A stretch of 54,779 nucleotides of DNA from a virus (IMGVR_UViG_3300024517_000021:1-54779), one strand, 5' to 3'; shown: positions 10,019 through 29,268, counted from the first letter of the stretch. Made by a program: numbers and translations. The notes: generated by a model not told the origin, from the letters alone.

Positions 10019-10489
10019 TTGTCTATTTCAGAAAGTCAATACGTCGTACCCGATAAAGACGCTAGTTGCCTTCGCTCAGTTACGCCATATGACTTAAGCG
10101 AGGATGAGGTTGGTTATTTTTTGCGTGCTGTCAAAACGCATGATCATGCTGGCGGTGTTGACAAGGTCGTAGAAATTATAAATTCAGGTCGTATGAATCT
10201 TTGGGTATGGCGAGATGGTGACTCAGTAGGTGTATGGGTAACTGAAATTACTTGTCACTTCGATGGAGAGACGGAGATGCTCCTATCGATGTTGGCTGGT
10301 AACAATATGTTGCAAAGTTACTTTGTCGCTTCGGACTTGATGGTTGATAAGGCCAGGGAGGCTGGATGCAAGCGTCTCGTTGCCTATGTCAAGCCGAATA
10401 TTCTGAAGAATTTAAAGGAAGCTTCGTGGCGATCTGGAATTAATATGGATTTCAATGAACTCTATGTAGTGATTGCGAAGGAGGCTTAG
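10019..10489 (+). CDS. Second GNAT-like protein (distant paralogue of upstream gene)
   Basis: TTG start; I.SG...LWV, G..VTEI, L.G, A.EAGC..L pattern parallels upstream gene. Confidence 0.5.
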   Translation: MSISESQYVVPDKDASCLRSVTPYDLSEDEVGYFLRAVKTHDHAGGVDKVVEIINSGRMNLWVWRDGDSVGVWVTEITCHFDGETEMLLSMLAGNNMLQSYFVASDLMVDKAREAGCKRLVAYVKPNILKNLKEASWRSGINMDFNELYVVIAKEA

Positions 10490-10490
10490 G

Positions 10491-11411
10491 ATGGGTGGCG
10501 GTGGTGGTGGTGATACCTATCAAACGAATATGCCAAAGTGGGCGATGGGAGCGCATAGGAGGCTCATTAAAGAAGCTGAGGAAGAAGCGTATGGTCGGGA
10601 ATTCCCGGTCTATTCAGACCCTCGCGTCGCGGGCTTCAGCCCCTATGAGCAAGCTGCGATGGGTGCTCGTCAGCAGATGTTTGAGCTAGGCGATCCGCTT
10701 GGCGCTTTTGCGGCAGAGCGGGTAACTGCCCCTGGGTATCAGGCTTCGGAGTTTGATTTTGGGACGTTCAATGATGGGGCAAGGGAACAGTACATGTCCC
10801 CGTATATGCAGAATGTTGTTGAGGCGGAGAAGCAATCTGCATTGGATGAGTATGCCCGGCAGGGTATGAGATCGGATGCGGAGAGGATTTCTTCTGGTGC
10901 GCGAGGTGGATATCGGGAGGCTGTGGAGCAAGCGCTGGGCAGATCTCAGCAGGCCAAGGTGATGGGGGAGATCCAGGCAAGGGGATCTCAAGCTGCTTTC
11001 GAGAATGCTCAACAGCAATTTGAGAGGGATCGTGCATCCGCGATTCAAGCTGCCCAGATGGGTGATGCATCTGCTTTGGCGGCAGCGAAACATCGGATGT
11101 CCCAGGCGGCGGGTGCGAGTGATATTGCAACCACTGGTCAGGCAAGGGCTCAGGAAAGAATCAAGGATCTAGAGAGGACTGGAGCCTCGCAGAGGGAGAT
11201 GGAGCAATCGAAGCTTGATCTTGCCTACGAGGACTTCATGAGGGAGTTCCAGTATCCCAAGACGCAGATGAATTGGCTGGCTGGAATGCTTACTGGTGTC
11301 CCAAGTGGGATGATGCAACATACGAGGAGCCCAACTCCCGGTCTTGCTTCCCAGGCATTGGGTCTCGGTATCGGCGCAGCCGGTTTGCAGCGTCTATTTA
11401 GCGGAGAATAG
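10491..11411 (+). CDS. Putative DNA pilot / ejection protein
   Basis: AAGGAGG SD; starts MGGGGGG; Y...R.A.FSP.., YMSPYMQNV, Gln/Ala-rich helices, C-terminal hydrophobic GLGIGAAG. Confidence 0.65.
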   Translation: MGGGGGGDTYQTNMPKWAMGAHRRLIKEAEEEAYGREFPVYSDPRVAGFSPYEQAAMGARQQMFELGDPLGAFAAERVTAPGYQASEFDFGTFNDGAREQYMSPYMQNVVEAEKQSALDEYARQGMRSDAERISSGARGGYREAVEQALGRSQQAKVMGEIQARGSQAAFENAQQQFERDRASAIQAAQMGDASALAAAKHRMSQAAGASDIATTGQARAQERIKDLERTGASQREMEQSKLDLAYEDFMREFQYPKTQMNWLAGMLTGVPSGMMQHTRSPTPGLASQALGLGIGAAGLQRLFSGE

Positions 11412-13276: not shown

Positions 13277-16200
13277 TTGAGTAGAGATCTATATCGGGAT
13301 CTTGTCTATCGAATAGCGGAAGAGGAGGGGGTCTATGGACCCCTTGCCGAAGCTGTCATCCAGCAGGAATCCAACTGGGATCCTGCTGCCACATCCCATG
13401 CAGGCGCGCAGGGACTCATGCAGCTTATGCCTGGGACTGCATCAGATCTTGGGGTGGAGGATCCACTCGACCCCGAGCAGAATATCCGTGGTGGCGTTCG
13501 CTATCTCAGGCAGAATCTTGAGAAGTACGACAACGATATTGATCTCGCGTTGGCAGCCTACAATGCTGGCCCAGGCAATGTGGACAAGTATGGCGGGATC
13601 CCCCCATTCAAAGAAACCCAGGATTATGTTTCTCGTATCCGTGGCGAGAGACTCCCGATGTTCATGTCGGAGTACGGGGATTTCGAGGAAACTTCCGAGG
13701 AGGAGGTTTCCGCAGGAGTTGACCCTGCTGGCCTTGAAGATCAAGTAGTAGAGGAGGAAGTCGAAACAAGGACTGTCTTCCTTCCCGACAATACCTGGGT
13801 AGATGCCCCAGCGGATATGCCGGAAGAGGAAGCGCTTCAGCTTGCAAGGGAGAAATACCCAGAATCATTTAATGTCGTTGGAGTAGAAATACCACGAGGG
13901 GAATCCAATTCATGGGATGCGGCTGCCGCCGCCGCGTCACGCTCTACCTTCGGGCTGATCCCCGGCCTTCAGGCCGCTTTCGCCTCGGCCACCGGCAACG
14001 AAGATCTTTACGATCATGCCCAAGGCAGGCTTCGGGAAGAGTCCGAGGCTGCATATGACATTGCTCCGAATCTTGTTACGACAGAAGAGATCGGGAAGGT
14101 TTATGATGAAGAGGGCCTGATTCCTGCGGCAGCGAAAGCCATGGAGTTCGGGACCGAGCAAATATTCCAGTCCTTTGGATTCCAGGCTCCCTCTATTGCC
14201 GCCGGTCTTGGGGTGGCGGGTGCGGCACAGTTGGGAGTTCTCGCCGGATTGACAGGCCCGGTGGGAGTGGCGACTGCCGGTATGCTGGCTGGCCTGGGTA
14301 CGATGTTCTCAACCTTCTTGAGCGAGAACCTTGAGCGTTCTTACGAAGAAGGAAAGATCGATACCAAGGATGTGAACCTTCTCAGGCAGGCTGTCTCTGC
14401 TGGCGGTCAAACTGCCCTGAACTCTCTCACCTATTTGCTGGTTGGCGGCAAGGTGGGAACGAAGATGCTTCTTTCTCCGGCAGCCAGGGAAGAGGGCTTC
14501 AGCGCGCTCGGGAAGACACTCAATAGGCTAGAGGATCTGTCTCCCGTCAAAAGAATGCTGTCGGTTGTTGCAGAGGAAGAAGTTGCCGAGATCGGGCAGC
14601 AAGCACTGGAAAGGTATGCGGCTGGCTTGCCGGTAGATCCCCGGCACAAGGGTGCAGCAGAAGAGTATGCGGAGATTGCTTTGGCAACTCTTGCTCCGTC
14701 TCTTGGTTTCGCTGCATTGGGTGGTGTCTCATCCAGTCTTTCGAGGCGAGCAGCGGAGCGGAAGGATCTCGACAAAGAGACCGACGTAAAGAAAGCAATG
14801 ATGGAGCGGGTTACGGAAGCCCGTCTCAAGCTTGAAGAGAATCGAAGATCCGATGCGCTTCACAATCTAAGAGAGTCTGCTCAGTATCAAGCGGAAAGGG
14901 ATTTGTTTCTTTCGGAGGCAGGGGATCTTGCTGGAATCACTGCTGAAGATATCCATGCGCTCGCTAAAGAAAGAAATATTAATTCTGAAGACGTTGCGTT
15001 CCATGAATTTTCTAGAAAGGCAACTGCCGGGATTGAGGATAAGACTGGGAAGAAGGGTGGTCAGGCTTATCTAGATGGAATGTCTCCGAAGCAGCTCCAG
15101 AAGATGTATGCCGATATCAAGGCAATGCCGGTTCAGGAGCAGCCAACCAGTCTTCAGGTTGTTTCGGAGAAGGATGCCAGGAGTTTTGCTGGTGCGTTGG
15201 CTAAGGGCAGGAAGAAGCAGAAGGTCACGAAAAAGCAGGTTGAAGCAAAGCTTCGGGCTCTTGGCAAGATCGATGAAGGTCAGATGGAGGAGAACTTCCT
15301 CGGTGACCTAGCAGACCAGTACATCTTCAGGCTTGCTGAGTTTGGTCTGGGAACGAAATTGGATGATGGGAGCATCCAGCTCAAAAAGACTGACCGGACT
15401 TTAGTCAGCGAGTCGGACTACCAAAAAATTATGGATGCTTCCCGTGCAGACGCGGGCGGCAGATTCATTACGATGGGCCGCGCGAAAGAGCTTACTGGCG
15501 TTCGCGGCTTCAACCGCTATCGGGCGATCAGAGACGAAGCAATTAGACGTGGTGATATTGTCAAGACTGGCAAGCGTTACATGGTTGCTCCTGCCAAGGA
15601 GTTTACGAAGAGCTTCTCTTATCGCATTGATGAGGGTCCGCAGCATGTTGTAAGAAATGATCGCGGGGAAGTGGAGAGCACCCACGCTAACCAGAGAGCG
15701 GCAGACAAAGAAAAGAATAAGCTCGCAAGGAAGATTGGATATATTGCACGGGATGAGGGTGGCAACGCCATTGGTGGTGCAGGCACTAAGCAGGAAGCTC
15801 GCCAACATCTTTCTAGGTACTTTGCAAGGCTTCGACAGGAAGCCAAGAATGCTGTGCTCAATAACGGAGTGGGCAAACTGCCTCCGATTGATCAGGCTTC
15901 TGACTGGATTAAGCCCACGGTAGAGCGCCGAGCAGAAGAAGCTGGCGAGGCTGCTGTTCGTCGTGCGAAGGATAACGTCGTTGGGGTGAAGCCCATTCGC
16001 CGTGTTTATACGGTGGCCAAGGAAGATGGCTTTCTCATCCGAGAAGAAAAGACTGGCGCTGATGGAAGAGTCAGTCGTTCTGCCAGGAAAGATTTTCTCG
16101 CAGGAGAAGAAGAGGCTCGCGCCCGGCTGTCAGAGCTTGAAGGTCGCCGAGTGGGCAGGGCAGCGGTGGATCGAGGGGAAGAGGCAGAGCTTGTTCGGAG

Positions 16201-19200
16201 CTTGAGAGAAGATCCTGCCACTCCGTTGGATGAAGAGCTTCCCCTCCCTGCCCCGGAACAAGTCAGCGAACATGCTGCCCTGGAAGAGGAGCTGAACAAG
16301 GTTCTTGCAAGCCGAGGCTTGAGTGAATTCAGGACTGAGATTGTTGAAGGTCTCACTGTGGATGCGAGAGTGGATCCGCTCACTCTGACAATCCAAATTG
16401 CAATGACACCGGGTTTGCAATCGAAGAAGATAGAGGATCAAGTAAAGGCTCTGATGCCACTGTTGAATCATGAGAGTATTCATGCGTTCAGAAAGATGGG
16501 TCTGATTACAAAGGCGGAATGGAAGCAGCTCAAGAAGTGGGTCAAGACTACTCCTGTTCCCTCGGAGATTGTCAATGCATTTAACGAGAAGCAAACTGCC
16601 GCTGGGCTTGAGACGCTGCCAGATGGTGCGACCTACTATGACATGTCCCGAGTTCTTTACGCAGACCAGGGGAATGCGGACAACTGGATTGATGATTCCT
16701 ATGTAGAGGAGGCAGTTGCATTCCTCGGTCAGGATCTGACTAACATCGCGCCTGATCCAGAGGTGAAGGGAATCTTCCGAAAGATCGCTTCCGTTCTCAA
16801 GCGGGTGGGTCGAGCCCTTATGGGTAGGGGATATCGAACTCCAAAGGAAGCGTTCGACAAGCTTTATGGTCCCCAGATGGTTCAGAGGGCAAAGGCTGGT
16901 CGCTCGCTAGACACTTGGTGGACAGACCGAAGACTTGGGAATGATCAGATCAGGCCAGAGTATGAGTTCGCGGAGCTTGCTGGCTGGGCGGAAAGTCGAG
17001 GTCGAGTTCTCGGTGGAGAGCAAACAACAGAGGAGAAGGTTCTCGAAGCTCTTGATAGTGTCGAGAGTCCCGATGTTGATGTCTCCCCTGGTCGCGCTGC
17101 TGTTCCCCGCGCCGCCGAGGGTGCGCGTGTTGGTAATTGGGGGGAGTTGCCAAGAGGGGCGGACAACTGGGAGCAACTGCCAGATGGAAGGCTTGTCGGT
17201 TATCGCGTCTCAAGGAGTGTCGGCGGGCGTGCAGTATCGGGTGCCGATTCTCGTCAATCAGCGTCAATGGAACCGGGCGCACAGGTGGAATTTGAAGGGG
17301 ATGGCGTTTTCGTTACGAATGATTTGGAATATGCCAAGACCTACTACGGGGTACATGACGAAAATGCTTTGCAGCGTGTCGCGTTTTCGCGCGACGATGT
17401 TACCTCTGGACGCTTGGCAGATAGTGAGCCGGAAGTAAGTGTCAGGTCTGGCGAGGTAATTGGGTCTGATGTGTTTACTGACCCTGACCTAGACCCCACC
17501 CCCCGCGCCGCCGAGGGTTTTCCTCGCCACACAGATAGATCCTATCGAAATGCAGTCAATAGAGATGAGGCTGCCCGCGCAAATGCAGAGTTTGACGAAG
17601 ACACTCGCACTTGGTCTGATGGACAGTGGGAATCCGTTGGTGACTTTCCGAATACGCGACACATCGAGCTAACCAATCACTTGTCTCCAACCATAGAGGA
17701 GTTGAAGACCCAAGGCTTGGGTATGCACACGGATCACCAACGTAGTCTGGTTGGTAAGAACCGAGATATCCCAGAGGGAACGCCAGTTCGCTTGAGGATT
17801 GATGTAAGACTTTGGAAGGACTGGCTCAGGAAGATTGGAGAGGGGAAGTACGCTCAGACAGTACACGATATTTACAATAAGAAGGGGGAATATGTAAATA
17901 TCGAGAGTGCTACCCAGGTTGGCACTGCTCTTGGGTATGACAATATTGCTCGACTAGATGGGGATGTTGAGTTCAAAGTTAATTGGAACCAAGCTAACAA
18001 GATACGGTATGCGGATGGAAAGAAGACTCCCATTGCCGTTGTCGAGGGTGCGATATCCCAGGATAGAACTGATCCTCGGGATATCCCCGACTTCGATAGC
18101 TGGATCCCGGTTGGTTACAACCCACATAAGTCTGTCTTCTTTTATGACAAGAGGACTGGTCAAGAGGTAGTTGGTGGTAGGGATGCGATCTCTACTGGCA
18201 ACACTGTATTTGTAAGGGAAGCCAACTACGGGGATCGGAGTGTCCAGTCAGCTACCGAGGAGGGTGACCGGCAATTCGCACAGGATAGGCCGAGTCGCCG
18301 CGTGGGTAGGGCAGCGGTGGATCGAGGGGAAGCTGTAACTCACGCGCTCAGGATTATCGAGGGGATAGATTCCGCTTCTATCGACAGCAAGACTTCTAGT
18401 CCTACTGTGTTTGAGATTGCAAAGTATTTTTACGATTCAGTTGATGATCGAGTTGACCATAGGTCGGCCACTGATTCCCAGAATAAAGCTCTAGAAGATT
18501 TAATTTTTGACGAAGCTCTTTTTGCGGTAAAGAAAAACCCGTCTGCACTCGAATGGTATGATGAGAACCTGAATCTCACGATGTCTGTCCTTGAGGAGAT
18601 AGACCCGGATCTAAAAAATCCAGACAACCGATTTGTCTTGAGCGCCCTGTTGGCGGTTACGTCTAACGGCAATACGGTGGATGAGCAGTTTAAGCAGTCA
18701 TGGGATACTTACCGGCATTGGGTTGATAATGATGGGGAGTTGGTTGGCGATTATGCAGCGGGAGACAAGAAGAAATTTATCCAGAATCATATAGCCATCA
18801 TCTCTTCCCTTGTGGAGAACCTGGGCTATGCCGGTGCTGCTGAGTGGTTATCTTCCAAGAGTCCCGTTTCGGAAATACGAAAGTCCGCTAGTGATTGGGG
18901 CTACCCGAATGCGAAGAAAATTGCTACTACAGAATTTGTAGATGAGGTGGTTCCGCATTCTGTAATTTTCGGACCCAAGCTTGGCTCGTTTTTTAATAAC
19001 CTGTATGGGGACTACTCCACCTTAACCATGGACCGATGGTTCATGAGAATGCTGGGGCGGGTTGCAGGTAGCCAGCTAGATATAAATATACCTAAACTGA
19101 AACAAGCGGAGGCGCGAGGACGCAAGAGTTTAGGTGATCTCTCTTCTCAAGATCGCAAGATGCTCGGGCTGAATAAAAAGTCTTTTACTGGACCTAATAT

Positions 19201-22200
19201 TGTTTCAAGCGTCGGGCGAGTTAATAAATACTTTTCCTTGGCGAAAAACCGAGAAGGGATTGCGAAGGGAACTCCGCTTGATAATTTCAGGAAAGCTGTA
19301 AATAATTTATCAAAGAAATATGAGCCGCTAATTGAATCTCCGGTTTCCCCTGGTCACCGAAGATGGATTCGCGCTAGGTTTAACAATGTAATCAAGAGGC
19401 TTAGGGATGAAGGTCTAAGCATAGAGCCTGCGGATCTGCAAGCGTTGTTGTGGTATAATGAGAAGGCGCTCTTTAATGCGCTGAACTATCGCGAAAAGAA
19501 GGGGTCTGATGACTATGCGGGATCGGCAGAAGCCCTCCACCAACGAGTGGTTGGCAGACCATCGAGAGTCTATGCAACAGGCGCAGGACGAGTGGCAGGA
19601 GTCGGAGGAGGGCCAAGCGCTGAGCGAGTGGGCAGAGCGGCTGCCAACAGGGGTGAAACTCCCGAAGCCGTCCTCCGGGACTTCAGAAGCAGAACCGATG
19701 GACGTTCGCTCGTGGCTCAAGAGGCGCTTTCCCGGCCTTACAGACGAGGAACTAGAGGAACATCTAGCGCTCTACGGGGGCTAGGGGCACCAGATAGTGT
19801 TCAGGTAGTAAGGTATAAGTTTGACTCTCCGAGGTTCAAGGAATCTTTTGATTCTGCCGGAGTTCCGACAACTGATATACTTGAGATATCTGGCCCTGGA
19901 TCTAGCCAATTTTTCAGAGAGCGTATACAGAAATCAAAAGATGAAAACCGTTTTGGTTCTTCGGTTTACGTTTACGACGAACCCGAGTATTCGGGTATGC
20001 GGCTTTTCCTTTCTGATGATGGGCACTCTGGCATTGCGCTAAAGGGCGATGATATTGTAAGCGGATTTTCTACCCCGGAAGCTCCCAGGGGAAGTGTCTA
20101 CCCCCTCATGATGAAGGCAATTGACGAGGGCGGTAGGCGCGCGGACGCCTTTGATACGGTCCTCCCGCGACTCTATTCAAATATGGGGATGCGGGTAGTA
20201 GCGAGAGTTCCATGGGATGATCAGTACGCACCCCCAGGTTGGGACTATGACCTTTATTCTAGATTTAATTCTGGAAGACCAGACGTAACCTACCTTGTTT
20301 ATGATCCAGACTATTTGGGTTACTACGAGGGTACCGAGGGTTCGGTTGTTTCTTCTCCAGACGATGCAGTCTCGCTTCAGGATTCAGCGCTTGAAGAGAT
20401 TGATTCTCGCCCGATAGAGCGCGTTGGCAGAGCCGCGATGAGCCGGGGTATCCCAAGAGGTGCGGAGAATCCAGTTCTTCGGCCAGGGACAGATGGTCAG
20501 GTCACTCTTGCGAATGCAAGGTGGGGGCAGATTCCCTTTAACAAGGAAGGGAAGTTCGACAAGCGCGGAGTAGCCTATGACATATTTGTCAAGGAAGGTT
20601 ACGACGAAAGCGTTGAGGGCAAGAGCAGGGGATTCGGCGAACGGCACATCGAGAGGCATAACCCGGATATCCGAGACAACACCCCCTTCCGTGATTGGAA
20701 AGAACTTCTTTCAGAATTCACTAAAGCTTTGTCCAAGGGCAAGAAGCTTAGGAGCGGCGATATTTATCCAGCCCCGGATGGCGCAGGCCGGATGTCTTTC
20801 CTGTGGGACAGGGATGATTTCAAAGAGCCCGTTGTTGTCATCATGGAGTATGTGGACAGAGAGGGTGGCGAGAGTCTCCCCCCGAAAGCCCACCACTACA
20901 GCGTAGTCACTGCCTTTGCTTCGGACGATTACGGTGGAAATGTTCCTGATGGAAATCGGAGGAACAACACTCCGCTTCATGGGAGTCGGGTATCGACCGA
21001 GGCAATCAAGGCGTACCGGAGACCTTCCGTAGCGAGGAAATGGAACGAGAAGCAGCGTGGTAGATTTGCTCTCAGCAGGACGGACGGAGTTCCTTACACG
21101 CCAGCGCAGAGAGCTGCACAAGCGGATCTAAATGGAGGCATCCCCGAGACTGATAATTCTCTATGGGGGCAGGTTTCTAGTGCATTCCCTGTAATAGACA
21201 CCGCCTTCTGGTCTGAGATGCGTCGCAGGTTCCTTGAGAAGTTCAATCGTCTTAAGGAAATAGGGGAGATGAGGGGCGCTCGCGGGGATACGGTGGGTAG
21301 CCTAGCGAGTTCATCTGCCTGGGCCTTGGCAATGATGGTGGATCGAGCGGGAGCTTTTCTTTCTGCGAGCTTCAAGTATGGAGTAATGACATTTCGTGAT
21401 GGCATTCCGATGGTTGAGGATCTGGAGCTAACGGATACTGCTGAAAATGTTTTGATCTACAACACGCGGACTGGTGAGTACGAGAGAGTTACGAAGTCTG
21501 TCCCCAATATGTACGAAGGTGTGGGCGGGTTGCTCTCCATACTGGAGGCACTCGCAGTTCCGGGTAGAAACTTGGTCCCGAAGTTCTTCGCTTACTCCCG
21601 GGCGTTGCGTGGCTACAACCTGATGCAGGCAGGCAAGCTGGTTCCATTCGAGAATCCAGAGGAGTCAATCAAGCAGGGGTTGGCGTTCGCAGACGAACAC
21701 CCGGAAATTGCTATTGCTCATGCCAACCTGCAAAAGTGGAATGAGGGTATGGTTGAGTTCCTCGTTCAGACTGGCGTGATGACAAGGGATATGGCTGACG
21801 TTTGGTTGCAGCACTCAGACTACGTTCCCTTCTATCTGAATTTGGACGGCGAGACGAATGATGCGATGAGGCAGATCTTCACCGAGCAACTGGGTGAAGG
21901 TGCTGACTTCCAGATTCTAGACTCTTTGGTTTCAGGTATTCCTTCCAAGCGGTACAAGGGATTTAAGGGTCAGCTCATGGAGCCAGTCGAGGCTCTGAGC
22001 AAGAATGCATTTGCCCTGATTCAGGCCGGTCTGAAGAATGTCGCATCTGCTAAGGCTATCGATGAGGCGATGGATATTGCCGAGCCGATGGCTCGTGAGA
22101 CAACAAAGGATAAGTCCGACTTGACGGTGCGCCGTGAAGGGAAGGAATATTATTACGCAGTCAGTGATCCTGTTCTTTTGAATACATTGATTGGTGCATT

Positions 22201-23818
22201 CGAGGGAACGAACCCTGTGATAGAGGCGTTCGGTGCTCCTGCCAGATGGCTACGGGAGGCAGTGACTCGGAGCCCGGAGTTCATGGCTGCAAACATGCTT
22301 CGGGATTCGCTGTCTACTTGGGTGATTAGTGGTGGAAAAGCAGGTCCGTGGGATACGTTGTCTACGTTTGGAAAAGATCTGAAGAATTGGAAGATCGGGG
22401 AAACCTCCGAGACTCTTAAGATTCTTGAGAAGACAGGTGCAATTGGAGGGTATGATCTCCAGGGTACTTCTCCCAAGGCGTTGAAAAGATATTTCCTGAA
22501 GGCTTCTGGTGCTAAGTCTGGTGGTCCGATGGGACTAGGCTCAAAGCTATGGGGAGATCTTGGTGATATCTCTGGTTTGTCGGAAGCGGCTGCACGGCAG
22601 CGTGTCTACGAGCATGTCTACGAGATCACGATGGACAAGCTTGCTGCTGAAAACATTCGAGGCGAAAAGGCTGAGCGCATTGCGATGCGAGAGGCTGGAT
22701 TCCAGGCTCAGGAAGTGCTCAACTTTTCTAGGAAAGGAAGCTCTCCCTGGCTGAAAGTAATCACTGCCACCGTACCGTTTTTGAATGCTCGCTTGCAGGG
22801 CCTCGACCGCTTGGGCAGGTCGGCCTTTGGTCAAGATTCGATGGTTGGGATGAGCAAGGAAGAGGCGATTCGATCCTTCATTTTGCGTGGCAGCTTGATC
22901 GCAGGGATGACGATTGCCTATACGCTGATGAACTGGGAGGATGAGGAGTACCAGAATACTCGTCAGGAAATTAGAGATGATAACTGGTTGATTCCTACGG
23001 GTACTGGCAATTTCATTTCTATCCCGATTCCGTTTGAAGTGGGAGTCTTGTTCAAGGTGATTCCAGAAATGTTGACTGCTGCGGCACTGGGTCGAGCGCC
23101 GAGGGAGTTGGTTGATTCTGCACGACATGCCTTGGTCAATACCCTGAACTTCAATCCACTCCCGCAAGCGGTGAAGCCAATCATTGAGGGTTGGACAAAC
23201 TACAACTTCTTCACAGGTCGAGAGATCGTGCCCTTCTATATGGAGGATATGATTTCGGAGAAGCAGTACCGTCCGACAACAACAGCCCCAGCCAAGATGC
23301 TGGGTGCTGCATTCAATGTCAGCCCGATGAAGGTGGAGAACTTCATTCGAGGTCAGTTCGGAACGATTGGTTCCTATGCGATGTCTGCCACGGATGCAGT
23401 CTTACATAACCCGGCGTTCGGCTATACGAGTAGGCCAGACAGAAGGCTGACAGACTTCCCCTTCTTTAGACGATTCATGAAGGATGAGTTCGGTACTGGG
23501 AACAAGTCTCTCTACTACGATATGCGTGGGGAAGTAGATGGGATTGTTGCCACGATCAATGCCTTGTCTAAGACTGAGCCGATGGAGGCAATGAAGATTC
23601 GTAGGGAGTATGGAGGTCTGCTGCGGATGCGAGATGTGGTGAACTCGATGGACAAACAGATGCGTAGTCTCAGGAACCGTCGCATTCAGATCTATGTGAA
23701 TCCGTCTATGGATCCTGGGATGAAGAGGAAGTTGATTGACAACTTGGATAGAACTGAAAACCGTTTACTCAAGAATGTTCCGGCGATGCGGAAGATGGCT
23801 GACCTGGGGATCTTGTGA
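13277..23818 (+). CDS. Giant multi-domain (polyvalent-type) virion protein: N-terminal lytic transglycosylase, zincin-like metallopeptidase, ART-like, GNAT-like, nuclease-like and C-terminal LPD38-like domains
   Basis: 3513 aa; SLT motifs QES, GAQGLMQLMP, ALAAYNAG, ETQDYV; HESIH...EEAVA; C-term RDDNWLIP...IPIPFEVG.LFK..PE. Confidence 0.8.
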   Translation: MSRDLYRDLVYRIAEEEGVYGPLAEAVIQQESNWDPAATSHAGAQGLMQLMPGTASDLGVEDPLDPEQNIRGGVRYLRQNLEKYDNDIDLALAAYNAGPGNVDKYGGIPPFKETQDYVSRIRGERLPMFMSEYGDFEETSEEEVSAGVDPAGLEDQVVEEEVETRTVFLPDNTWVDAPADMPEEEALQLAREKYPESFNVVGVEIPRGESNSWDAAAAAASRSTFGLIPGLQAAFASATGNEDLYDHAQGRLREESEAAYDIAPNLVTTEEIGKVYDEEGLIPAAAKAMEFGTEQIFQSFGFQAPSIAAGLGVAGAAQLGVLAGLTGPVGVATAGMLAGLGTMFSTFLSENLERSYEEGKIDTKDVNLLRQAVSAGGQTALNSLTYLLVGGKVGTKMLLSPAAREEGFSALGKTLNRLEDLSPVKRMLSVVAEEEVAEIGQQALERYAAGLPVDPRHKGAAEEYAEIALATLAPSLGFAALGGVSSSLSRRAAERKDLDKETDVKKAMMERVTEARLKLEENRRSDALHNLRESAQYQAERDLFLSEAGDLAGITAEDIHALAKERNINSEDVAFHEFSRKATAGIEDKTGKKGGQAYLDGMSPKQLQKMYADIKAMPVQEQPTSLQVVSEKDARSFAGALAKGRKKQKVTKKQVEAKLRALGKIDEGQMEENFLGDLADQYIFRLAEFGLGTKLDDGSIQLKKTDRTLVSESDYQKIMDASRADAGGRFITMGRAKELTGVRGFNRYRAIRDEAIRRGDIVKTGKRYMVAPAKEFTKSFSYRIDEGPQHVVRNDRGEVESTHANQRAADKEKNKLARKIGYIARDEGGNAIGGAGTKQEARQHLSRYFARLRQEAKNAVLNNGVGKLPPIDQASDWIKPTVERRAEEAGEAAVRRAKDNVVGVKPIRRVYTVAKEDGFLIREEKTGADGRVSRSARKDFLAGEEEARARLSELEGRRVGRAAVDRGEEAELVRSLREDPATPLDEELPLPAPEQVSEHAALEEELNKVLASRGLSEFRTEIVEGLTVDARVDPLTLTIQIAMTPGLQSKKIEDQVKALMPLLNHESIHAFRKMGLITKAEWKQLKKWVKTTPVPSEIVNAFNEKQTAAGLETLPDGATYYDMSRVLYADQGNADNWIDDSYVEEAVAFLGQDLTNIAPDPEVKGIFRKIASVLKRVGRALMGRGYRTPKEAFDKLYGPQMVQRAKAGRSLDTWWTDRRLGNDQIRPEYEFAELAGWAESRGRVLGGEQTTEEKVLEALDSVESPDVDVSPGRAAVPRAAEGARVGNWGELPRGADNWEQLPDGRLVGYRVSRSVGGRAVSGADSRQSASMEPGAQVEFEGDGVFVTNDLEYAKTYYGVHDENALQRVAFSRDDVTSGRLADSEPEVSVRSGEVIGSDVFTDPDLDPTPRAAEGFPRHTDRSYRNAVNRDEAARANAEFDEDTRTWSDGQWESVGDFPNTRHIELTNHLSPTIEELKTQGLGMHTDHQRSLVGKNRDIPEGTPVRLRIDVRLWKDWLRKIGEGKYAQTVHDIYNKKGEYVNIESATQVGTALGYDNIARLDGDVEFKVNWNQANKIRYADGKKTPIAVVEGAISQDRTDPRDIPDFDSWIPVGYNPHKSVFFYDKRTGQEVVGGRDAISTGNTVFVREANYGDRSVQSATEEGDRQFAQDRPSRRVGRAAVDRGEAVTHALRIIEGIDSASIDSKTSSPTVFEIAKYFYDSVDDRVDHRSATDSQNKALEDLIFDEALFAVKKNPSALEWYDENLNLTMSVLEEIDPDLKNPDNRFVLSALLAVTSNGNTVDEQFKQSWDTYRHWVDNDGELVGDYAAGDKKKFIQNHIAIISSLVENLGYAGAAEWLSSKSPVSEIRKSASDWGYPNAKKIATTEFVDEVVPHSVIFGPKLGSFFNNLYGDYSTLTMDRWFMRMLGRVAGSQLDINIPKLKQAEARGRKSLGDLSSQDRKMLGLNKKSFTGPNIVSSVGRVNKYFSLAKNREGIAKGTPLDNFRKAVNNLSKKYEPLIESPVSPGHRRWIRARFNNVIKRLRDEGLSIEPADLQALLWYNEKALFNALNYREKKGSDDYAGSAEALHQRVVGRPSRVYATGAGRVAGVGGGPSAERVGRAAANRGETPEAVLRDFRSRTDGRSLVAQEALSRPYRRGTRGTSSALRGLGAPDSVQVVRYKFDSPRFKESFDSAGVPTTDILEISGPGSSQFFRERIQKSKDENRFGSSVYVYDEPEYSGMRLFLSDDGHSGIALKGDDIVSGFSTPEAPRGSVYPLMMKAIDEGGRRADAFDTVLPRLYSNMGMRVVARVPWDDQYAPPGWDYDLYSRFNSGRPDVTYLVYDPDYLGYYEGTEGSVVSSPDDAVSLQDSALEEIDSRPIERVGRAAMSRGIPRGAENPVLRPGTDGQVTLANARWGQIPFNKEGKFDKRGVAYDIFVKEGYDESVEGKSRGFGERHIERHNPDIRDNTPFRDWKELLSEFTKALSKGKKLRSGDIYPAPDGAGRMSFLWDRDDFKEPVVVIMEYVDREGGESLPPKAHHYSVVTAFASDDYGGNVPDGNRRNNTPLHGSRVSTEAIKAYRRPSVARKWNEKQRGRFALSRTDGVPYTPAQRAAQADLNGGIPETDNSLWGQVSSAFPVIDTAFWSEMRRRFLEKFNRLKEIGEMRGARGDTVGSLASSSAWALAMMVDRAGAFLSASFKYGVMTFRDGIPMVEDLELTDTAENVLIYNTRTGEYERVTKSVPNMYEGVGGLLSILEALAVPGRNLVPKFFAYSRALRGYNLMQAGKLVPFENPEESIKQGLAFADEHPEIAIAHANLQKWNEGMVEFLVQTGVMTRDMADVWLQHSDYVPFYLNLDGETNDAMRQIFTEQLGEGADFQILDSLVSGIPSKRYKGFKGQLMEPVEALSKNAFALIQAGLKNVASAKAIDEAMDIAEPMARETTKDKSDLTVRREGKEYYYAVSDPVLLNTLIGAFEGTNPVIEAFGAPARWLREAVTRSPEFMAANMLRDSLSTWVISGGKAGPWDTLSTFGKDLKNWKIGETSETLKILEKTGAIGGYDLQGTSPKALKRYFLKASGAKSGGPMGLGSKLWGDLGDISGLSEAAARQRVYEHVYEITMDKLAAENIRGEKAERIAMREAGFQAQEVLNFSRKGSSPWLKVITATVPFLNARLQGLDRLGRSAFGQDSMVGMSKEEAIRSFILRGSLIAGMTIAYTLMNWEDEEYQNTRQEIRDDNWLIPTGTGNFISIPIPFEVGVLFKVIPEMLTAAALGRAPRELVDSARHALVNTLNFNPLPQAVKPIIEGWTNYNFFTGREIVPFYMEDMISEKQYRPTTTAPAKMLGAAFNVSPMKVENFIRGQFGTIGSYAMSATDAVLHNPAFGYTSRPDRRLTDFPFFRRFMKDEFGTGNKSLYYDMRGEVDGIVATINALSKTEPMEAMKIRREYGGLLRMRDVVNSMDKQMRSLRNRRIQIYVNPSMDPGMKRKLIDNLDRTENRLLKNVPAMRKMADLGIL

Positions 23819-24276
23819 GACTCTCTCCCCACTTTGTTCTTAGAGAGTTGACGAAATCCCAGACGGCAACTCGAATGGGAATCGACAATAGTCCAAACGA
23901 TACGGAGATAGAATCTCTTCGTGTTGTATGTGAAAATATTTTAGAGCCAGTCAGGGCTAACTTTAAGGTTCCATTTAGTCCGTCTTCTGGATTTAGATGC
24001 AAAGAGTTGAACGAAGCAATTGGTGGTTCCCCTACGAGCCAGCATTCTTTGGGTCAAGCTGCGGACTTTGAGATCTTTGGTGTCTCTAATCTAGAGATTG
24101 CATTGTGGATTAAATACAATCTAGATTTTGACCAGTTGATACTAGAGTATTATTACAATGACGATCCTTCTTCTGGTTGGGTTCATGCGTCCATCCTGAC
24201 TCACGGCAACAGGAAGGAGTGTTTTACTTTTGATGGGAAGATTTACTGGGGTGGTATTGAAGGGAAAGGTTCTTAA
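23815..24276 (+). CDS. Endolysin, peptidase M15A family
   Basis: LSPHF.L.E, SSGFRC..LN.AIGG...SQH..GQAADF, WVH Zn-binding motifs. Confidence 0.9.
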   Translation: MRLSPHFVLRELTKSQTATRMGIDNSPNDTEIESLRVVCENILEPVRANFKVPFSPSSGFRCKELNEAIGGSPTSQHSLGQAADFEIFGVSNLEIALWIKYNLDFDQLILEYYYNDDPSSGWVHASILTHGNRKECFTFDGKIYWGGIEGKGS

Positions 24277-24492
24277 TTGATCATCGATCAGTTGGCACAT
24301 TTTGGATTCGCGTTCTTGGTATCTGGGCTAGGAACAGATACTGGATTGGAGGGTCTCTATGTTGGTTTTGCGCTGGGCGTTGTCAGAGAGCATGCACAGA
24401 TGCAGGCTTCCGGTGATCAGACAATCGGTAAGAATCGAGTAATCGATGTACTCATGTGGTCATTGGGCGGATGCTTAGGAGGTATGCTTTGA
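24277..24492 (+). CDS. Small membrane protein (lysis cassette)
   Basis: TTG directly after TAA; hydrophobic segments; DQLAH...REH motif. Confidence 0.55.
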   Translation: MIIDQLAHFGFAFLVSGLGTDTGLEGLYVGFALGVVREHAQMQASGDQTIGKNRVIDVLMWSLGGCLGGML

Positions 24493-24803
24493 AAGTTTTA
24501 AAAGAATGGATAGACAAGTTGGCGACGCAGTATGTGGTCGGCAGGTTTCGGACTGCGTTTGCCGGGAAGAAAAGATGGCTGACGGCTTTGGCGTATAGCG
24601 TGGTAATCTCGGGTACGCTTGCTGGTGTTCCCGTGGAAAATCTACTAGGGGAACTTGTCGGGGATCCAACGGTAGATAAGGAAGAGACCGTCGCCGCCTT
24701 GGTTGCTGCGGCAGTCGCGCAGTTTCGGTTCTTCCAAAACATGGGAGTTAACCGAGATCTCAAACAAAAGGTCAAGAGCCTTGAGGAGAAAAGTGATGGT
24801 TAG
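24489..24803 (+). CDS. Putative holin-like membrane protein
   Basis: Start re-called to TTG 24489 (GGAGG 6 nt upstream, TTGA overlap); GKKRW followed by two hydrophobic helices and a charged C-term. Confidence 0.5.
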   Translation: MKVLKEWIDKLATQYVVGRFRTAFAGKKRWLTALAYSVVISGTLAGVPVENLLGELVGDPTVDKEETVAALVAAAVAQFRFFQNMGVNRDLKQKVKSLEEKSDG

Positions 24804-25005
24804 TAGAACGCTTGCTTGCTTTATTGCCCTGGGTTTTGTTGGTTGTGCTTCGGTTGGTGCGCGGATAGATCCCGGGTCGGGAACTTACGAGTTGGTGATT
24901 GGTGCAACGGACTGCATTGACCAGAAAAATATTCTGGGATCTGCCGTTACGGCGATACCCGGTCTTGGTCCCTGGGCGGTTTCCAACTTTGGTTGCAATA
25001 ACTAG
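24796..25005 (+). CDS. Small lipoprotein (possible spanin component)
   Basis: ATG 24796 with GAGGAG SD; MVSRTLACFIALGFVG-C lipobox; end of lysis cassette. Confidence 0.55.
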   Translation: MVSRTLACFIALGFVGCASVGARIDPGSGTYELVIGATDCIDQKNILGSAVTAIPGLGPWAVSNFGCNN

Positions 25006-25376
25006 GCTGTTGGCTCTTCGATTGGGAACAAGGGTACTTGTTTGATCTGGTCAAGGAGGAATGCTTCCTCCCCTTCCATGGTAAGAGTACGGAAGATTTG
25101 CATTTCCGGGCACTTCTTGTTCCACATCCTGGCGTAGAATGGTCCCATCCTTCCTGGGATGTTCCTTTTGTCTTCCGGGTTGGCGTTAAACAGGCTCCAC
25201 CGGACAGCTCCCAGAACTAATGATGTGGGTATTGATGGGTATCTTCCATTTGCACTGCGAGACTTGGTTACTGCTGCCCATGTAAATTTCTGGAACAGAA
25301 CCCATACATCTTTATTTTCCCTATGAAATACGAGGAACTCTTCGCGGAGTTCCTCGTATTTTGTTTTAGGGATCAT
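25002..25376 (-). CDS. Hypothetical phage protein
   Basis: 124 aa; F..FH.EN..VW..F, RW, FYAR pattern; ATGA coupling. Confidence 0.65.
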   Translation of the reverse strand: MIPKTKYEELREEFLVFHRENKDVWVLFQKFTWAAVTKSRSANGRYPSIPTSLVLGAVRWSLFNANPEDKRNIPGRMGPFYARMWNKKCPEMQIFRTLTMEGEEAFLLDQIKQVPLFPIEEPTA

Positions 25377-25759
25377 TCCTTCTGTTCCTGCTCTTCGTGA
25401 AGCTTCAGGTATTCCTCCCCCGTTAGGCTGGGATGATTCGCCTCACTCCTGCATTCGTTCATAACCCATGCATACCCAGCGAGATCTTTTATTGAGTCTT
25501 CCAGGGATGCATCCTCTGGGGCTTGTGCAATCCTGGCAATTTTTAGAAGTGCCATCATTGTCCCTACATCGAAAGCTTCTAGCTTTCTCACTTCACGATG
25601 AGAGAGATACCAGTTCCATACCTCGGCGATTGCTTCTTGCATCCGGTAGGCAGACCCGTAGGTTCCCTCCCTGGATTCTTCGCAAGTCTCCCTCACCTCA
25701 TCCAAGAATGATTTAGATGTCAATTTCCATATCCCCCTTCCATTCCTTGATGATTTCAT
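25373..25759 (-). CDS. DUF6378-like protein
   Basis: R...YG......IA..W..YL...DV..MM.LLKIAR.....DS..D.AGYA; true start probably TTG at 25723. Confidence 0.75.
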   Translation of the reverse strand: MKSSRNGRGIWKLTSKSFLDEVRETCEESREGTYGSAYRMQEAIAEVWNWYLSHREVRKLEAFDVGTMMALLKIARIAQAPEDASLEDSIKDLAGYAWVMNECRSEANHPSLTGEEYLKLHEEQEQKE

Positions 25760-26198
25760 CCAGCCGGTTCCTTGCCCTCTTGTTGGTTGCGAGAGCAGAC
25801 CGACTTGTAATTTCCAGTTCCTCCCTGAGAAGTTGGGCGCAAAGTTCCTCCGGCTTGTAGCCAGCCATCAGGTGATGGGGCTTGGCCATATCACCAATGA
25901 ATCTGTCTTGGAAGCTTTCATTCCGGCAAAGCTGACCGGCCTTTGCCACATAGCTGGCACCTTCTGTTTCGGGAAGTGTGGGGTTTTCATCGTCTCCGAT
26001 TTGGACTGCGACGATCTGATACCTAGTACCTAGCCTTGCCTGCATCATAAGATCGGGCGCTTCGTCTGGATGTACGCTGAACCCCACCACCCATCCATTC
26101 TTGTCCATGCGAAGGATCATCAGTGAACCCTCAAATTTCTGGATCGTGTCTTCCAGTTTCATTTTCCCACCTTTCGTGAAAAATATTTGCCCATTCAA
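25713..26198 (-). CDS. Hypothetical phage protein
   Basis: VHPDE.P, G.RY....V.I.DDE.P, AG.LCR...FQ, I.SR..L pattern; start may be ATG 26163. Confidence 0.7.
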   Translation of the reverse strand: MNGQIFFTKGGKMKLEDTIQKFEGSLMILRMDKNGWVVGFSVHPDEAPDLMMQARLGTRYQIVAVQIGDDENPTLPETEGASYVAKAGQLCRNESFQDRFIGDMAKPHHLMAGYKPEELCAQLLREELEITSRSALATNKRARNRLDEIIKEWKGDMEIDI

Positions 26199-26451
26199 TC
26201 GGGTCTATCAGCCTGTCATTCCACCAGTCTGCTTCATCCCCACGGGTGTGGCATTTCATGTGGCACTCCGCACAGAGGGGAACTGCCCAACGGTCGGAAT
26301 TCTTTCTGCCCATCCCTCTTCGTTCTGCGTGTCTGAGATGGTGAGCTTGAACGGAAAAGGGGGAGGCACACACAAGGCATACCTCCCCCCGCACCCGCTT
26401 GAGGTAGGCGGCTGACCGCCACGGGCGAGACTTAAAACGGGATGTCGTCAT
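26131..26451 (-). CDS. DUF968 / HNH-like Zn-binding nuclease
   Basis: YL..VR...CLVC....AHH....GMG.K.SD...VPLC..CH...H. Confidence 0.8.
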   Translation of the reverse strand: MTTSRFKSRPWRSAAYLKRVRGEVCLVCASPFSVQAHHLRHAERRGMGRKNSDRWAVPLCAECHMKCHTRGDEADWWNDRLIDPIEWANIFHERWENETGRHDPEI

Positions 26452-26698
26452 CCACCTGGGTGGGAAGCTCCTCCTCCTTAAGCTCGATGGTAATGAACGT
26501 GTAGGGGTTGCCTTTCTTGGATGTTCGCTCCCAAGCGGCGCACCTCACCTTGAGTTCATCACCGGGTGCTTTCTTCAACGCCTCGACCAGATCCTTGAGG
26601 GATTGTCTGCTGAATTCCCCGGTGCCCGTCTTCACCGGGTGATTGGGCCCGGCTTGATACTTGTTGGGATACAGCCACAGTTTGGGTTTATTGTCCAT
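26432..26698 (-). CDS. Putative single-stranded DNA-binding protein
   Basis: P..TG, AAW...SK.G.PY and acidic C-terminal DDDIPF tail; adjacent to annealase. Confidence 0.65.
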   Translation of the reverse strand: MDNKPKLWLYPNKYQAGPNHPVKTGTGEFSRQSLKDLVEALKKAPGDELKVRCAAWERTSKKGNPYTFITIELKEEELPTQVDDDIPF

Positions 26699-28231: not shown

Positions 28232-28262
28232 TTGTTCTCCTTGTGAATTCGGATAGTATGAT

Positions 28263-28694: not shown

Positions 28695-28882
28695 AGGACA
28701 AGGAGCAGATTGTATTGTGGATGACCACCCAGAATTATGTGGACTGGGTCCAGTGGGCTGGGTGGGAGAGAGAATGGGTTGATGAATTCTTCCAGGGGAT
28801 TATCGACTTGCGCCCTGCTGTGAGGAGAGAGGTGGGGATCCAATGTGCTCGGGGTCTCATGGCGATTTCGCATTTGGATTAA
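28583..28882 (+). CDS. Hypothetical phage protein (overlaps rusA 3' end)
   Basis: L.R.VL.QAVRDL...W......V..AG helical pattern; purine-rich SD-like sequence upstream. Confidence 0.55.
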   Translation: MEFGSRKPSDPGESFEGLRKLSRHVLVQAVRDLARNLKDKEQIVLWMTTQNYVDWVQWAGWEREWVDEFFQGIIDLRPAVRREVGIQCARGLMAISHLD

Positions 28883-28893
28883 TAAAGAATTTG

Positions 28894-29045: not shown

Positions 29046-29092
29046 ATAACTTAGATAAGCTTTGTCCGGCCATTGCACTGGGTGTTCAAGAC

Positions 29093-29227: not shown

Positions 29228-29268
29228 AGACAGCCTCTGTTGTAAGCTAGCCCGCACAGGGGGTCATT

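Follow-up and report, generated by a model that had tools for sequence, protein, structure and literature searches.

In RNA-virus polyproteins, a single chain contains its own protease, and a short consensus recurs at the borders between domains. In Vibrio MARTX toxins, an exchangeable effector array lies in a conserved backbone, a built-in protease cuts the linkers between effectors, and the repertoire varies by recombination; this protease is of the cysteine type, and a eukaryotic cofactor activates it. Among phage proteins, the main text of Iyer, Burroughs, Anand, de Souza, and Aravind (2017; PMC5512222) predicts that polyvalent proteins have their domains set free by embedded MPTase domains, already draws the analogy to RNA-virus polyproteins, and also covers the phage N4 virion RNA polymerase, which has an MPTase domain and is packaged unprocessed. 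The main-text passages of that paper on cleavage, processing, repeats, and boundaries do not describe a junction or cleavage-site motif, and the word "linker" occurs 0 times in its main text. In the jumbo phage SPN3US, head and ejection proteins are described as being trimmed by a prohead protease at a short consensus common to many sites.

Here we describe a marine phage protein (P0001) that is a chain of separate enzyme modules linked via a short repeated peptide, encoded in a 54,779-nt stretch of viral DNA that was analyzed as a whole (the window). Unlike RNA-virus polyproteins, to which it has no sequence or fold relation, it belongs to a dsDNA tailed phage in which only one virion protein is so organized. 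Like MARTX toxins, it has variable effector cassettes inside a conserved backbone, but its embedded peptidase is zincin-like, its carrier is a phage particle, its target is a bacterium, and its cleavage is predicted; cysteine-protease Pfam families gave no match to the whole protein (E≤0.1) or to ten segments over residues 160-3513 (E≤5), and the resemblance would be functional only. With T7 gp16-type internal virion proteins it shares an N-terminal SLT domain, an ejection-gene neighborhood, and PHROG 342, but that match is limited to the first 342 of 3513 residues, and T7 gp16 is not known to have a cassette array, zincin, or repeated junction peptide. It is like the polyvalent proteins in being giant, multi-domain, and virion-associated and in carrying lysozyme-type, GNAT, MPTase, and LPD38 domains, but differs from their main-text description (Iyer et al. 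2017) in its defined repeated junction peptide and in the DNA repeats at two junctions. In contrast to the account of SPN3US, where a separate head-assembly protease acts at sites across many proteins, the motif here occurs in one protein, which itself bears the peptidase.

Domain content of the giant protein

Residues 6-342 match PHROG 342, "internal virion protein with endolysin domain". Upstream of the gene are a PHROG "DNA ejection protein" gene and a 620-aa ORF, and downstream is an endolysin gene. The SLT domain, the "internal virion protein" match, and the gene position suggest that the protein is delivered into the host with the DNA. By the definition of Iyer et al. (2017), it is a polyvalent protein: one polypeptide combines many globular domains that are unrelated to one another (SLT, zincin, glycosylase-like, GNAT, and LPD38, plus at least three more homology blocks), and an LPD-type domain is accompanied by virion, ejection, and endolysin gene neighbors. 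The conserved backbone comprises the SLT lysozyme-like N-terminus, the N-terminal region, the zincin peptidase, module M9, and the C-terminal region with LPD38; between the peptidase and M9 are four inserted cassettes, namely module B, M6, the glycosylase-like M7, and the GNAT-containing M8.

13277-23818, + strand: single open frame of the 3513-aa virion (ejection-type) polyvalent protein
13316-13624, + strand: SLT lytic transglycosylase domain, residues 14-116 (Pfam PF01464, E 1e-27)
16256-16903, + strand: zincin-like metallopeptidase module, residues 994-1209 (homology and AlphaFold model)
16469-16483, + strand: HESIH, residues 1065-1069, with EEA downstream at residues 1144-1146
17123-17500, + strand: mobile 132-aa module B, residues 1283-1408 (homology to giant proteins P0009, P0011, and P0015)
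17600-18265, + strand: module M6, residues 1442-1663 (BLAST block common to P0003, P0007, and P0016)
18464-19576, + strand: module M7, residues 1730-2100, candidate HhH-GPD DNA-glycosylase-like fold (covered by 25 homologs)
19658-20416, + strand: module M8, residues 2128-2380, containing a GNAT acetyltransferase fold (high pLDDT)
20450-21052, + strand: module M9, residues 2392-2592, part of the backbone (aligned in P0036, P0037, P0038, P0044-P0046, P0049, and P0060)
21134-23815, + strand: conserved C-terminal region (PHROG 9854; aligned in >30 relatives)
22940-23464, + strand: LPD38, residues 3222-3396 (Pfam PF18857, E 7.9e-36, over the 27-bit cut-off)

An earlier note on this DNA held that the protein has its own HExxH peptidase, and conservation, predicted fold, and structural matches bear this out. 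The module has 66 homologs at E≤1e-3, nearly all with xNHExIHAxR, and E1066, H1069, and E1144-E1145-A1146 (E127, H130, E205, E206, and A207 in segment numbering) are each at least 90% conserved in 51 aligned sequences. The AlphaFold model (mean pLDDT 77.7) contains a helix (H61-73), three strands (E80-84, E91-94, and E99-103), the HExxH helix (H113-134), and the Glu helix (H200-213). Structural matches are almost all zincin peptidases, with middling scores (Foldseek E 0.03, VIA Z 5-6.6); they include abylysin and selecase in Foldseek (probability 0.99-1.0) and lethal factor (Z 6.6), PprI (Z 5.9), and PPEP-2 (Z 5.2) in VIA, and also ArdC and Wss1. These observations support the HExxH region as a real zincin-type domain and predicted peptidase. 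Because residues 968-1262 match no Pfam family, and hence no zincin family, at E≤5, we term it zincin-like without assigning it to a named Pfam family.

Module B has a weak Atlas lead to ADP-ribosyltransferase clusters, and M6 has a weak Pfam match to Phage_L5_gp82 (E 1.7e-4, under the curated cut-off). M7 is modeled with high pLDDT at residues 1730-1933 and 2018-2100, and its VIA matches are the Tm1821 8-oxoguanine glycosylase (Z 12.7, rmsd 3.8, 196 aligned), NTHL1 (Z 10.6), and MagIII (Z 9.4); as the fold is helical, the glycosylase-like match is taken as a lead only. M8 aligns with GNAT chains over about 130 residues in VIA (Z 9-10.6, rmsd 2.2-3.0), GNAT chains fill the top of its Foldseek list, and a precomputed PF00583 is present on the relative P0003. 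M9 has neither a Pfam match nor a PDB sequence match.

Junction peptides at the module borders

The following peptides were located in the giant protein:

16145-16180, + strand: junction A, RRVGRAAVDRGE, residues 957-968, in a 39-nt DNA repeat (16143-16181)
17087-17122, + strand: junction B, PGRAAV-PRAAEG, residues 1271-1282, a weak copy with the left 18-nt repeat (17105-17122)
17501-17518, + strand: junction B', second PRAAEG, residues 1409-1414, right-hand member of the exact 18-nt direct-repeat pair
18296-18331, + strand: junction C, RRVGRAAVDRGE, a peptide identical to A, residues 1674-1685, in a 39-nt DNA repeat (18294-18332)
19622-19657, + strand: junction D, ERVGRAAANRGE, residues 2116-2127
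20417-20449, + strand: junction E, ERVGRAAMSRG, residues 2381-2391
21053-21076, + strand: junction F, RGRFALSR, residues 2593-2600, a weak copy
16802-16831, + strand: look-alike RVGRALMGRG, residues 1176-1185, within the peptidase fold and not a linker

RVGRAAxxRG occurs four times (A, C, D, and E), and the weaker copies are PRAAEG, present twice (B and B'), and GRFALSR, present once (F). All are centered on R-[A/F]-A, which is found at each junction from the peptidase through the C-terminal region. The earlier note had placed copies at A, C, D, and E and weaker ones at B and F, with correct coordinates and sequences, including the 37 of 39 identical nucleotides of A and C; B' and the look-alike are additional to its list.

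The recurrence exceeds chance. Ten-residue windows with a BLOSUM62 score of at least 39 fall on 7 diagonals (mean 0.05, maximum 1 in 100 composition shuffles), and R[AF]A occurs 11 times in the protein (mean 3.6, maximum 10 in 2000 shuffles). The pattern [RK]xGR[AF][AL] has 5 matches, all inside ORF 13277-23818, and is absent from all other stop-to-stop frames >100 aa in the six frames of the whole window.

Each of the six inter-junction intervals, proposed in the earlier note to be self-contained domains, corresponds to a single unit, either a BLAST homology block or a domain that AlphaFold folds with confidence: the zincin peptidase, itself bounded by junctions A and B, module B, the L5-gp82-like block, the HhH-GPD-glycosylase-like module, GNAT, and the backbone module. 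At A, C, D, and E, the sites with informative models, pLDDT is 30-45, and the segments are predicted to be unstructured, between flanking domains at ≥85; the values are <50 at A (model residues 20-30), 34-39 at C, 37-42 at D, and 30-40 at E, where the low-confidence stretch begins right behind the last confident GNAT residue. BLAST homology-block ends cluster right after C, right before D, and at E. The junction peptides mark the module borders, and A, C, D, and E lie between folded domains; the finding that the earlier note would have taken as refuting, a linker within a folded domain, applies only to the look-alike, which sits at the end of a helix (222-244 in model numbering, pLDDT 87-89) and is kept in peptidase homologs as GxAxRGxG[YF], indicating that such a sequence can also be an ordinary structural element.

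Each of the two longest direct repeats of the gene is in frame and falls within junctions. One is the A/C repeat (95% identity), in which 9 of 11 identical-residue positions have identical codons (2.8 expected, P about 0.0002); the other is the B/B' repeat, identical at 18 of 18 nt with a spacing of 396 nt. The exact 37-nt A/C pattern was not found in the viral contig collection. In the nine remaining pairwise comparisons of A, C, D, E, and the look-alike, codon sharing is at chance level, although D, E, and the A/C pair have 8-9 of 12 residues in common. Hence the description of the linker as DNA-conserved fits A/C and B/B' but not the remaining copies, which share the peptide and not the codons; four junctions retain the peptide despite differing codons.

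Cassette variation among relatives

Alignment restarts 1-25 residues past E (2392-2416) in 9 of 13 backbone relatives, and 9-76 residues past F in 13 other relatives, in agreement with the proposal that homologs vary by module presence and absence at the linkers. What distinguishes the backbone-sharing relatives is entire modules, bordered at E and F, and the variable stretch among them extends from about 1218-1286 to 2392-2416. In P0042, the peptidase and M9 are 28 residues apart (subject 515 to 543); our protein has residues 1286-2365 in that place. A point against the reading proposed below is that linker breakpoints would be expected whatever the model, since no other recombinants keep their domains intact.

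In amino acids, module B is 82-87% identical to its counterparts in P0009 and P0011 and 73% identical to that in P0015, giant proteins unrelated to ours outside this module. Its DNA is 88.7% identical to phage contig L004 and 85% to another, L005, and the homology runs from repeat to repeat (17107-17511 and 17123-17504, respectively). For module B, then, the linker behaves as the recombination joint that the earlier note had envisaged, but it is not a general DNA-homology joint, since D, E, and the A/C pair differ in codons. The 18-nt and 39-nt repeats are plain coding repeats, and we do not file the array with integron-like cassette systems.

Other giant proteins carry the same modules between motifs that are different and specific to their lineage. 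In P0009, module B is bracketed by copies of PDLDDSVGMA, and in P0007 an M6-like block (1929-2136) is bracketed by PKFSRKQ copies at about 1915 and 2141. Of 80 related giant proteins, 20 have lineage-specific junction motifs of a similar kind.

The multi-copy RVGRAA form is limited to the lineage of our protein; the A-site peptides of P0035, P0036, P0041, and P0044 are single within their own proteins. Three features indicate that the junction positions are old: R-[VI]-G is kept at the A site of the close relatives P0035, P0036, and P0041, the D alignment column has Arg in 23 of 24 non-gap rows (28 rows in all), and 18 of 31 relatives have an F-type motif, [RKP]x[FY][STA][LRK], at a distance of 16-52 residues before the C-terminal domain (mean 1.7 and maximum 6 for random windows).

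Possible roles of the junctions

We consider it possible, with a probability of roughly 0.45, that the junctions are selected peptides of a cassette array and probable cleavage sites of the protein's own zincin, and that their DNA served as in-frame crossover points. Speaking for this reading are the position of the peptides at module borders, their retention despite divergent codons, the age of the junction positions, the lineage-specific motifs around the same modules elsewhere, the conserved zincin in the same chain, the arrangement in P0042, the in-frame DNA repeats, and the prediction of Iyer et al. (2017). The zincin would recognize the junction peptides and divide the chain into individual effectors, either inside the capsid or once it has been ejected, similar to viral polyprotein processing. 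The junction-coding DNA would act as the crossover point when a cassette is gained, as seen for module B and as may apply to the others, and this gain would have left module B flanked by the exact 18-nt direct repeat and A/C with the 39-nt repeat. The earlier note, which took the linker to be a recombination joint, a proteolytic site freeing effectors after injection, or both, is as a whole partly supported.

It is unlikely that the junctions are only recombination scars, duplicated at each splicing and merely tolerated as flexible spacers. Scars would be consistent with the exact repeat around the recently transferred module B, the repeat at A/C, and the confinement of the multi-copy form to one lineage, and the conserved peptidase segment 1176-1185, which the motif resembles, could be the source of the copies. 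However, D, E, and A/C retain the peptide though their codons have drifted to chance-level identity, and the D Arg and F-type motif are held across proteins <35% identical; neutral spacers would not remain so conserved.

Several points weigh against cleavage by the zincin: the RVGRAAxxRG-type consensus of 10-12 residues is longer than many protease sites, its multi-copy form is that of a single lineage, a look-alike lies within the peptidase fold, and the peptidase lacks a Pfam zincin match at E≤5. In addition, the N4 virion RNA polymerase, which contains an MPTase domain but is uncut in the virion (Iyer et al. 2017; PMC5512222), indicates that an embedded zincin need not imply processing. The N4 case and the long consensus are also consistent with the peptides serving uncut as docking motifs, bound by a capsid-core or portal protein that organizes the chain in the head or by a host factor after ejection, as is the recurrence in another clade of D[IL]P[TL]FSR every ~60-110 residues between small, unlike segments. 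We nevertheless regard docking as improbable: the motif is missing from all the other reading frames of the phage, and the motif type differs between lineages with the same modules, a change that fits a co-evolving phage-encoded enzyme or partner and not a conserved host target.

Cleavage by another protease (prohead or host), with the zincin acting on host proteins instead, is very unlikely: jumbo phages such as SPN3US are described as trimming many ejection proteins at a short consensus via a prohead protease, P22 gp20 may require a host enzyme (PMC8954989), and MPTase domains as effectors are also allowed by Iyer et al. (2017; PMC5512222), but PHROG or Pfam scans of 29 other ORFs gave no match to a prohead protease family, the sole peptidase-labeled match is weak (phrog_17373, E 7.7e-4) and lies beneath the endolysin match of ORF 23815-24276, the 305-aa capsid protein matches a capsid family over residues 41-298, most of its length, and no further phage protein contains the junction motif.

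If the zincin does cut at the junctions, tailed phages may have a true polyprotein system, a broader proposal that we consider doubtful, in which an injected giant protein carries exchangeable anti-host enzymes, the protein's own zincin reads and cuts a lineage-specific "junction code" peptide bounding each enzyme, and the same junction-coding DNA is the splice point. Effector cassettes could then be swapped in frame between unrelated phages via junction-coding DNA, and about one quarter of the related giant proteins would use variants of the code, including RVGRAA, D[IL]P[TL]FSR, PKFSRKQ, LFSPR, and others. P0033, a 98%-identical variant of the protein, carries the substitution F2597S in junction F.

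The giant protein and its repeated junction peptide

The ORF for the giant protein P0001 (13277–23818, 3513 residues) is carried by a record of 54,779 bases that is classed as linear and is 93% complete by CheckV estimate; four seawater metagenome runs contain this phage at 99% identity or more. On its 5' side are virion structural genes, a gene for a PHROG 'DNA ejection protein' (10473–11411), and a 620-aa ORF, and on its 3' side is an endolysin gene; terminase, portal, capsid protein, and primase-helicase are encoded elsewhere in the window. P0001 has an SLT transglycosylase (PF01464, E 1e-27) at its N-terminal end and the polyvalent-protein domain LPD38 (PF18857, E 7.9e-36) at its C-terminal end; with a further match to the PHROG 'internal virion protein with endolysin domain', these indicate a packaged, ejection-type polyvalent protein. 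On these matches, P0001 joins the polyvalent family as a new member. Megablast with the giant gene found no match among phage records, and tblastn with residues 901–2700 found nine records, led by Limnohabitans phage DC33 (30% identity); a scan of viral contigs with the C-terminal 713 residues gave no match.

Junction peptides (centred on R-[A/F]-A) and modules of P0001, by residue
957–968: junction A
994–1209: zincin peptidase module
1176–1185 (window 16802–16831): look-alike RVGRALMGRG, inside the peptidase fold
1271–1282: junction B
1283–1408: module B
1409–1414: junction B', a second PRAAEG
1442–1663: module M6
1674–1685: junction C
1730–2100 (window 18464–19576): module M7
2116–2127: junction D
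2128–2380: module M8
2381–2391: junction E
2392–2592: module M9
2593–2600: junction F

The cultured phage DC33 (L003, PQ492659.1; 39 kb) has a 9378-nt CDS (22242–31619, 3125 aa) homologous to M7–M8. Its record is labelled Inoviridae, which looks inconsistent with the record size and a giant ejection-type gene.

An earlier note had described junctions A to F as copies of one linker, and every copy was found where it had been placed; B' and the look-alike were absent from its list. Seven diagonals have 10-mer scores of at least 39, against a mean of 0.05 and a maximum of 1 in 100 shuffles, and R[AF]A occurs 11 times (shuffle mean 3.6). In a six-frame scan, all five matches to [RK]xGR[AF][AL] fall inside the giant ORF and none in other long frames. 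The repeat is thus far beyond chance, and the shuffles exclude chance or low complexity as its source. In P0033, a 98%-identical variant from a different assembly, residue 2597 (21065–21067) is Ser in place of Phe, so that junction F reads GRSALSR. A second motif, [IL]PRG[AE]xN, occurs in three copies at residues ~205, 1291, and 2392 (window ~13889, 17147, and 20450), two of which directly follow junctions B and E.

The linker had also been called DNA-conserved, which holds for the pairs A/C and B/B' but not for the others. Nine of the 11 residues identical between A and C use the identical codon (2.8 expected, P ~0.0002), whereas the nine other pairings of A, C, D, E, and the look-alike share codons at chance level. 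The R-V-G-R-A-A-x-x-R-G core has therefore persisted at the peptide level despite drift at silent sites, showing that the junction peptides are under peptide-level constraint. Two direct repeats are outstanding in the gene, both in-frame and both at junctions: the 39-nt A/C repeat, with a spacing of 2151 nt, and an exact 18-mer at B and B' (17105–17122 and 17501–17518), with a spacing of 396 nt. The exact 37-nt A/C pattern has no match in viral contigs.

Internal translation starts at the linkers were rejected, as the fifth residue after Gly is encoded by GTG in A and C and by ATG in E, but by GCC in D. Compared by eye with the usual motif definitions, the consensus does not fit Tat signals, AT-hooks, or 2A-like skipping motifs.

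Junctions as module borders and, for module B, as crossover points

BLASTP of P0001 against the 30 other giant proteins returned for query residues 900–2700 resolves blocks at 964–1216, 1265–1422, 1442–1663, ~1700/1746 to 2081/2128 (25 proteins), 2196–2378 (12 proteins), and 2646–3506. Block ends cluster directly after C, directly before D, and at E. An AlphaFold model of residues 1640–2640 (28-sequence alignment, mean pLDDT 64) is confident at 1730–1933, 2018–2100, and 2128–2380 and falls to pLDDT 30–42 at C, D, and E; because the alignment is shallow around F, pLDDT is low throughout that region and the model is uninformative there. In a model of 940–1270 (51 sequences, mean pLDDT 77.7), residues 994–1209 are folded, and around junction A the pLDDT drops to less than 50. 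Both the homology blocks and the predicted domains support the proposal that each inter-linker interval is one unit.

Relatives found via the peptidase module have the N-terminal part and peptidase in common with P0001 up to ~1218–1286 and then resume at M9 or in the C-terminal region. Nine of the 13 that restart between 2300 and 2800 do so at 2392–2416, 1–25 residues past the end of E, and 13 further relatives restart at 2609–2676, past F. P0042 restarts at 2365, with only 28 residues in place of P0001 residues 1286–2365, and in P0017 an M8-like block precedes an M7-like block. The homologue comparison suggested in the earlier note thus favours borders at the linkers, and we conclude that the junction peptides mark module borders.

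Among the modules themselves, M8 contains a GNAT fold (Z 9–10.6). By its model, M7 is similar to HhH-GPD DNA glycosylases (Z 12.7 to Tm1821) and to a queuine-salvage enzyme, with Z ranging from 9 to 12.7; because the fold is helical, this glycosylase likeness is a lead only. If M7 did prove to be a base-excision-like enzyme, its injection would be of interest for phage counter-defence. M7 is the most widespread module, present in 25 of 30 relatives; its motifs are strongly conserved, and it usually accompanies the GNAT module. Module B has a weak language-model lead to ADP-ribosyltransferases and nothing more, the match of M6 to L5 gp82 falls below threshold, and M9 has no match in Pfam or in a PDB sequence search. 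Pfam searches with ten separate modules returned LPD38 and the weak L5 gp82 match only, and PDB sequence searches with M7 and with B plus M6 returned none.

The earlier note read the linker as a recombination joint for in-frame domain swapping, and for module B the data bear this out. At the protein level, module B shares 82–87% identity with P0009 and P0011 and 73% with P0015; outside this module, these three giant proteins have no similarity to P0001 detectable by BLASTP. At the DNA level, the viral record L004 is 88.7% identical to window 17107–17511 over 406 nt and L005 is 85% identical to 17123–17504; this homology starts and stops inside or at the two 18-nt repeats, and the 18-mer itself is absent from both records. 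In P0009, module B is flanked on both sides by PDLDDSVGMA, the linker proper to that protein. Together, the repeat-bounded homology and the P0009 linkers indicate that module B is mobile, that its flanks are those of the recipient, and that crossovers occurred in junction-coding DNA; on these alignments, the crossover point for this one module is shown to be junction DNA. The 18-nt repeats round a shared module offer a concrete picture of how marine phages could trade single effector modules in-frame.

Contigs of the four seawater runs (X4–X7) over 15900–18700 are pieces at least 99% alike, at low depth and with no joint; because contigs drop rare variants, this speaks neither for nor against deletion variants. 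A synonymous C>A change at 17113, within the left 18-mer, is present in a single contig of low depth. P0043, a backbone relative without module B, reads TPRAAEG-TGRAAEV at ~1660–1675 in its variable region; its PRAAEG is identical to the peptide on either side of module B in P0001, and by its sequence this site could be an unoccupied junction.

The embedded peptidase and proposed processing at the junctions

The HExxH peptidase previously noticed in P0001 is a conserved zincin at 994–1209. Nearly all of its 66 homologues (E≤1e-3) have xNHExIHAxR, and there is almost no variation at the HExxH Glu, at its second His, or in an EEA further downstream. Its fold matches are almost all zincin peptidases, with middling scores, and its secondary-structure order agrees with the MPTase (metallopeptidase) core as described by Iyer et al. 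2017 (PMC5512222). No Pfam model matches the module, an Atlas search with it gave nothing informative, and there are no shorter proteins with the HExxH module among 8000 candidates. The look-alike lies at the end of a confident helix in the model, and its conserved form across the family is GxAxRGxG[YF], so we assign it, on the predicted structure, to the peptidase fold and not to the linkers. This segment resembles the junction peptide RVGRAAxxRG; it may be the sequence from which the junctions evolved, a pseudo-substrate, or a coincidental likeness.

The earlier note also proposed that the linker is a proteolytic site. Borders at the linkers, the conserved zincin, and the crossover at module B support its interpretation in part, whereas the proteolytic part, putative cutting of the junctions by the zincin, is one that we infer. 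Iyer et al. 2017 (PMC5512222) predicted that embedded peptidases cut polyvalent phage proteins and compared them with RNA-virus polyproteins; their main text does not use the word 'linker', and its passages on cleavage, processing, repeats, and boundaries name no cleavage-site motif. Two points argue against cutting at the junctions: the consensus is long, and the MPTase-bearing N4 polymerase is described there as packaged uncut. When the peptidase domain was modelled together with Zn and a 40-residue stretch around junction C, the predicted complex scored 0.01, which speaks neither for nor against binding. The repeated peptide provides exact sites at which neo-termini could be sought and exact residues to mutate, making the prediction of polyvalent-protein processing directly testable.

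Junction motifs in other giant proteins

Its defined peptides, together with repeated DNA at two of the junctions, set P0001 apart as a new variant among polyvalent proteins; a literature search found no description of these motifs, with RVGRAA, PTFSR, PLFSR, and DIPTFSR occurring in unrelated papers only. Comparison of relatives indicates that the junctions are older than the P0001 lineage. At the M7–M8 junction, in a gappy and otherwise unconserved stretch, one column is Arg in 23 of 24 non-gap rows (28 rows), usually with D/E/G before and A/S/T/G after, and P0004–P0006 read EGRAAP. In 18 of 31 relatives, a [RKP]x[FY][STA][LRK] motif precedes the C-terminal domain by 16–52 residues, against a mean of 1.7 and a maximum of 6 in random windows; GRFALSR in P0001 and GRFSLNR in P0003 are local forms of it. 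At the A site, R-[VI]-G is kept in P0035, P0036, and P0041. The four-fold RVGRAA form is special to P0001; in four relatives, the peptide at the A site has no further copy in the same chain.

We surveyed 80 giant proteins, each 1000 residues or longer, leaving out shorter hits and P0002, P0033, and P0034 (copies or fragments of P0001). A short motif in at least three copies was found in 20 of the 80 (shuffles 1–3 of 80 in five replicates) and in at least four copies in 11 (shuffles 0); three of the motif families, those of P0015, P0082, and P0089, consist of low-complexity sequence rich in Pro and Ala, for which composition shuffles are no control. Repeated motifs include PKFSRKQ (P0007), [LV]FSPR (P0031), QFMPAE (P0008), and PDLDDSVGMA (P0009). 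Eight proteins with such motif families have 39 copies in total, 21 of which are no more than 30 residues from the end of a homology block (9.9 expected; HSPs of at least 70% identity dropped). Should the junction code prove general, it would offer an easy means of dividing thousands of unannotated giant phage proteins into functional units.

Among 10 proteins with the peptidase sequence [IL]DHE[ML][IV]HA, eight have D[IL]P[TL]FSR, a link between motif type and peptidase clade that could reflect shared ancestry alone. In this clade of relatives from outside the window (P0056, P0058, P0059, P0068, P0069, P0072, P0080, and P0093), there are 2–5 copies of D[IL]P[TL]FSR spaced ~60–110 residues apart (often ~70), with small unlike segments between them, and one copy lies ~28–44 residues upstream of the C-terminal domain. 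The D-I-P-x-F core of the motif has a possible resemblance to the acidic C-terminal tip of bacterial SSB.
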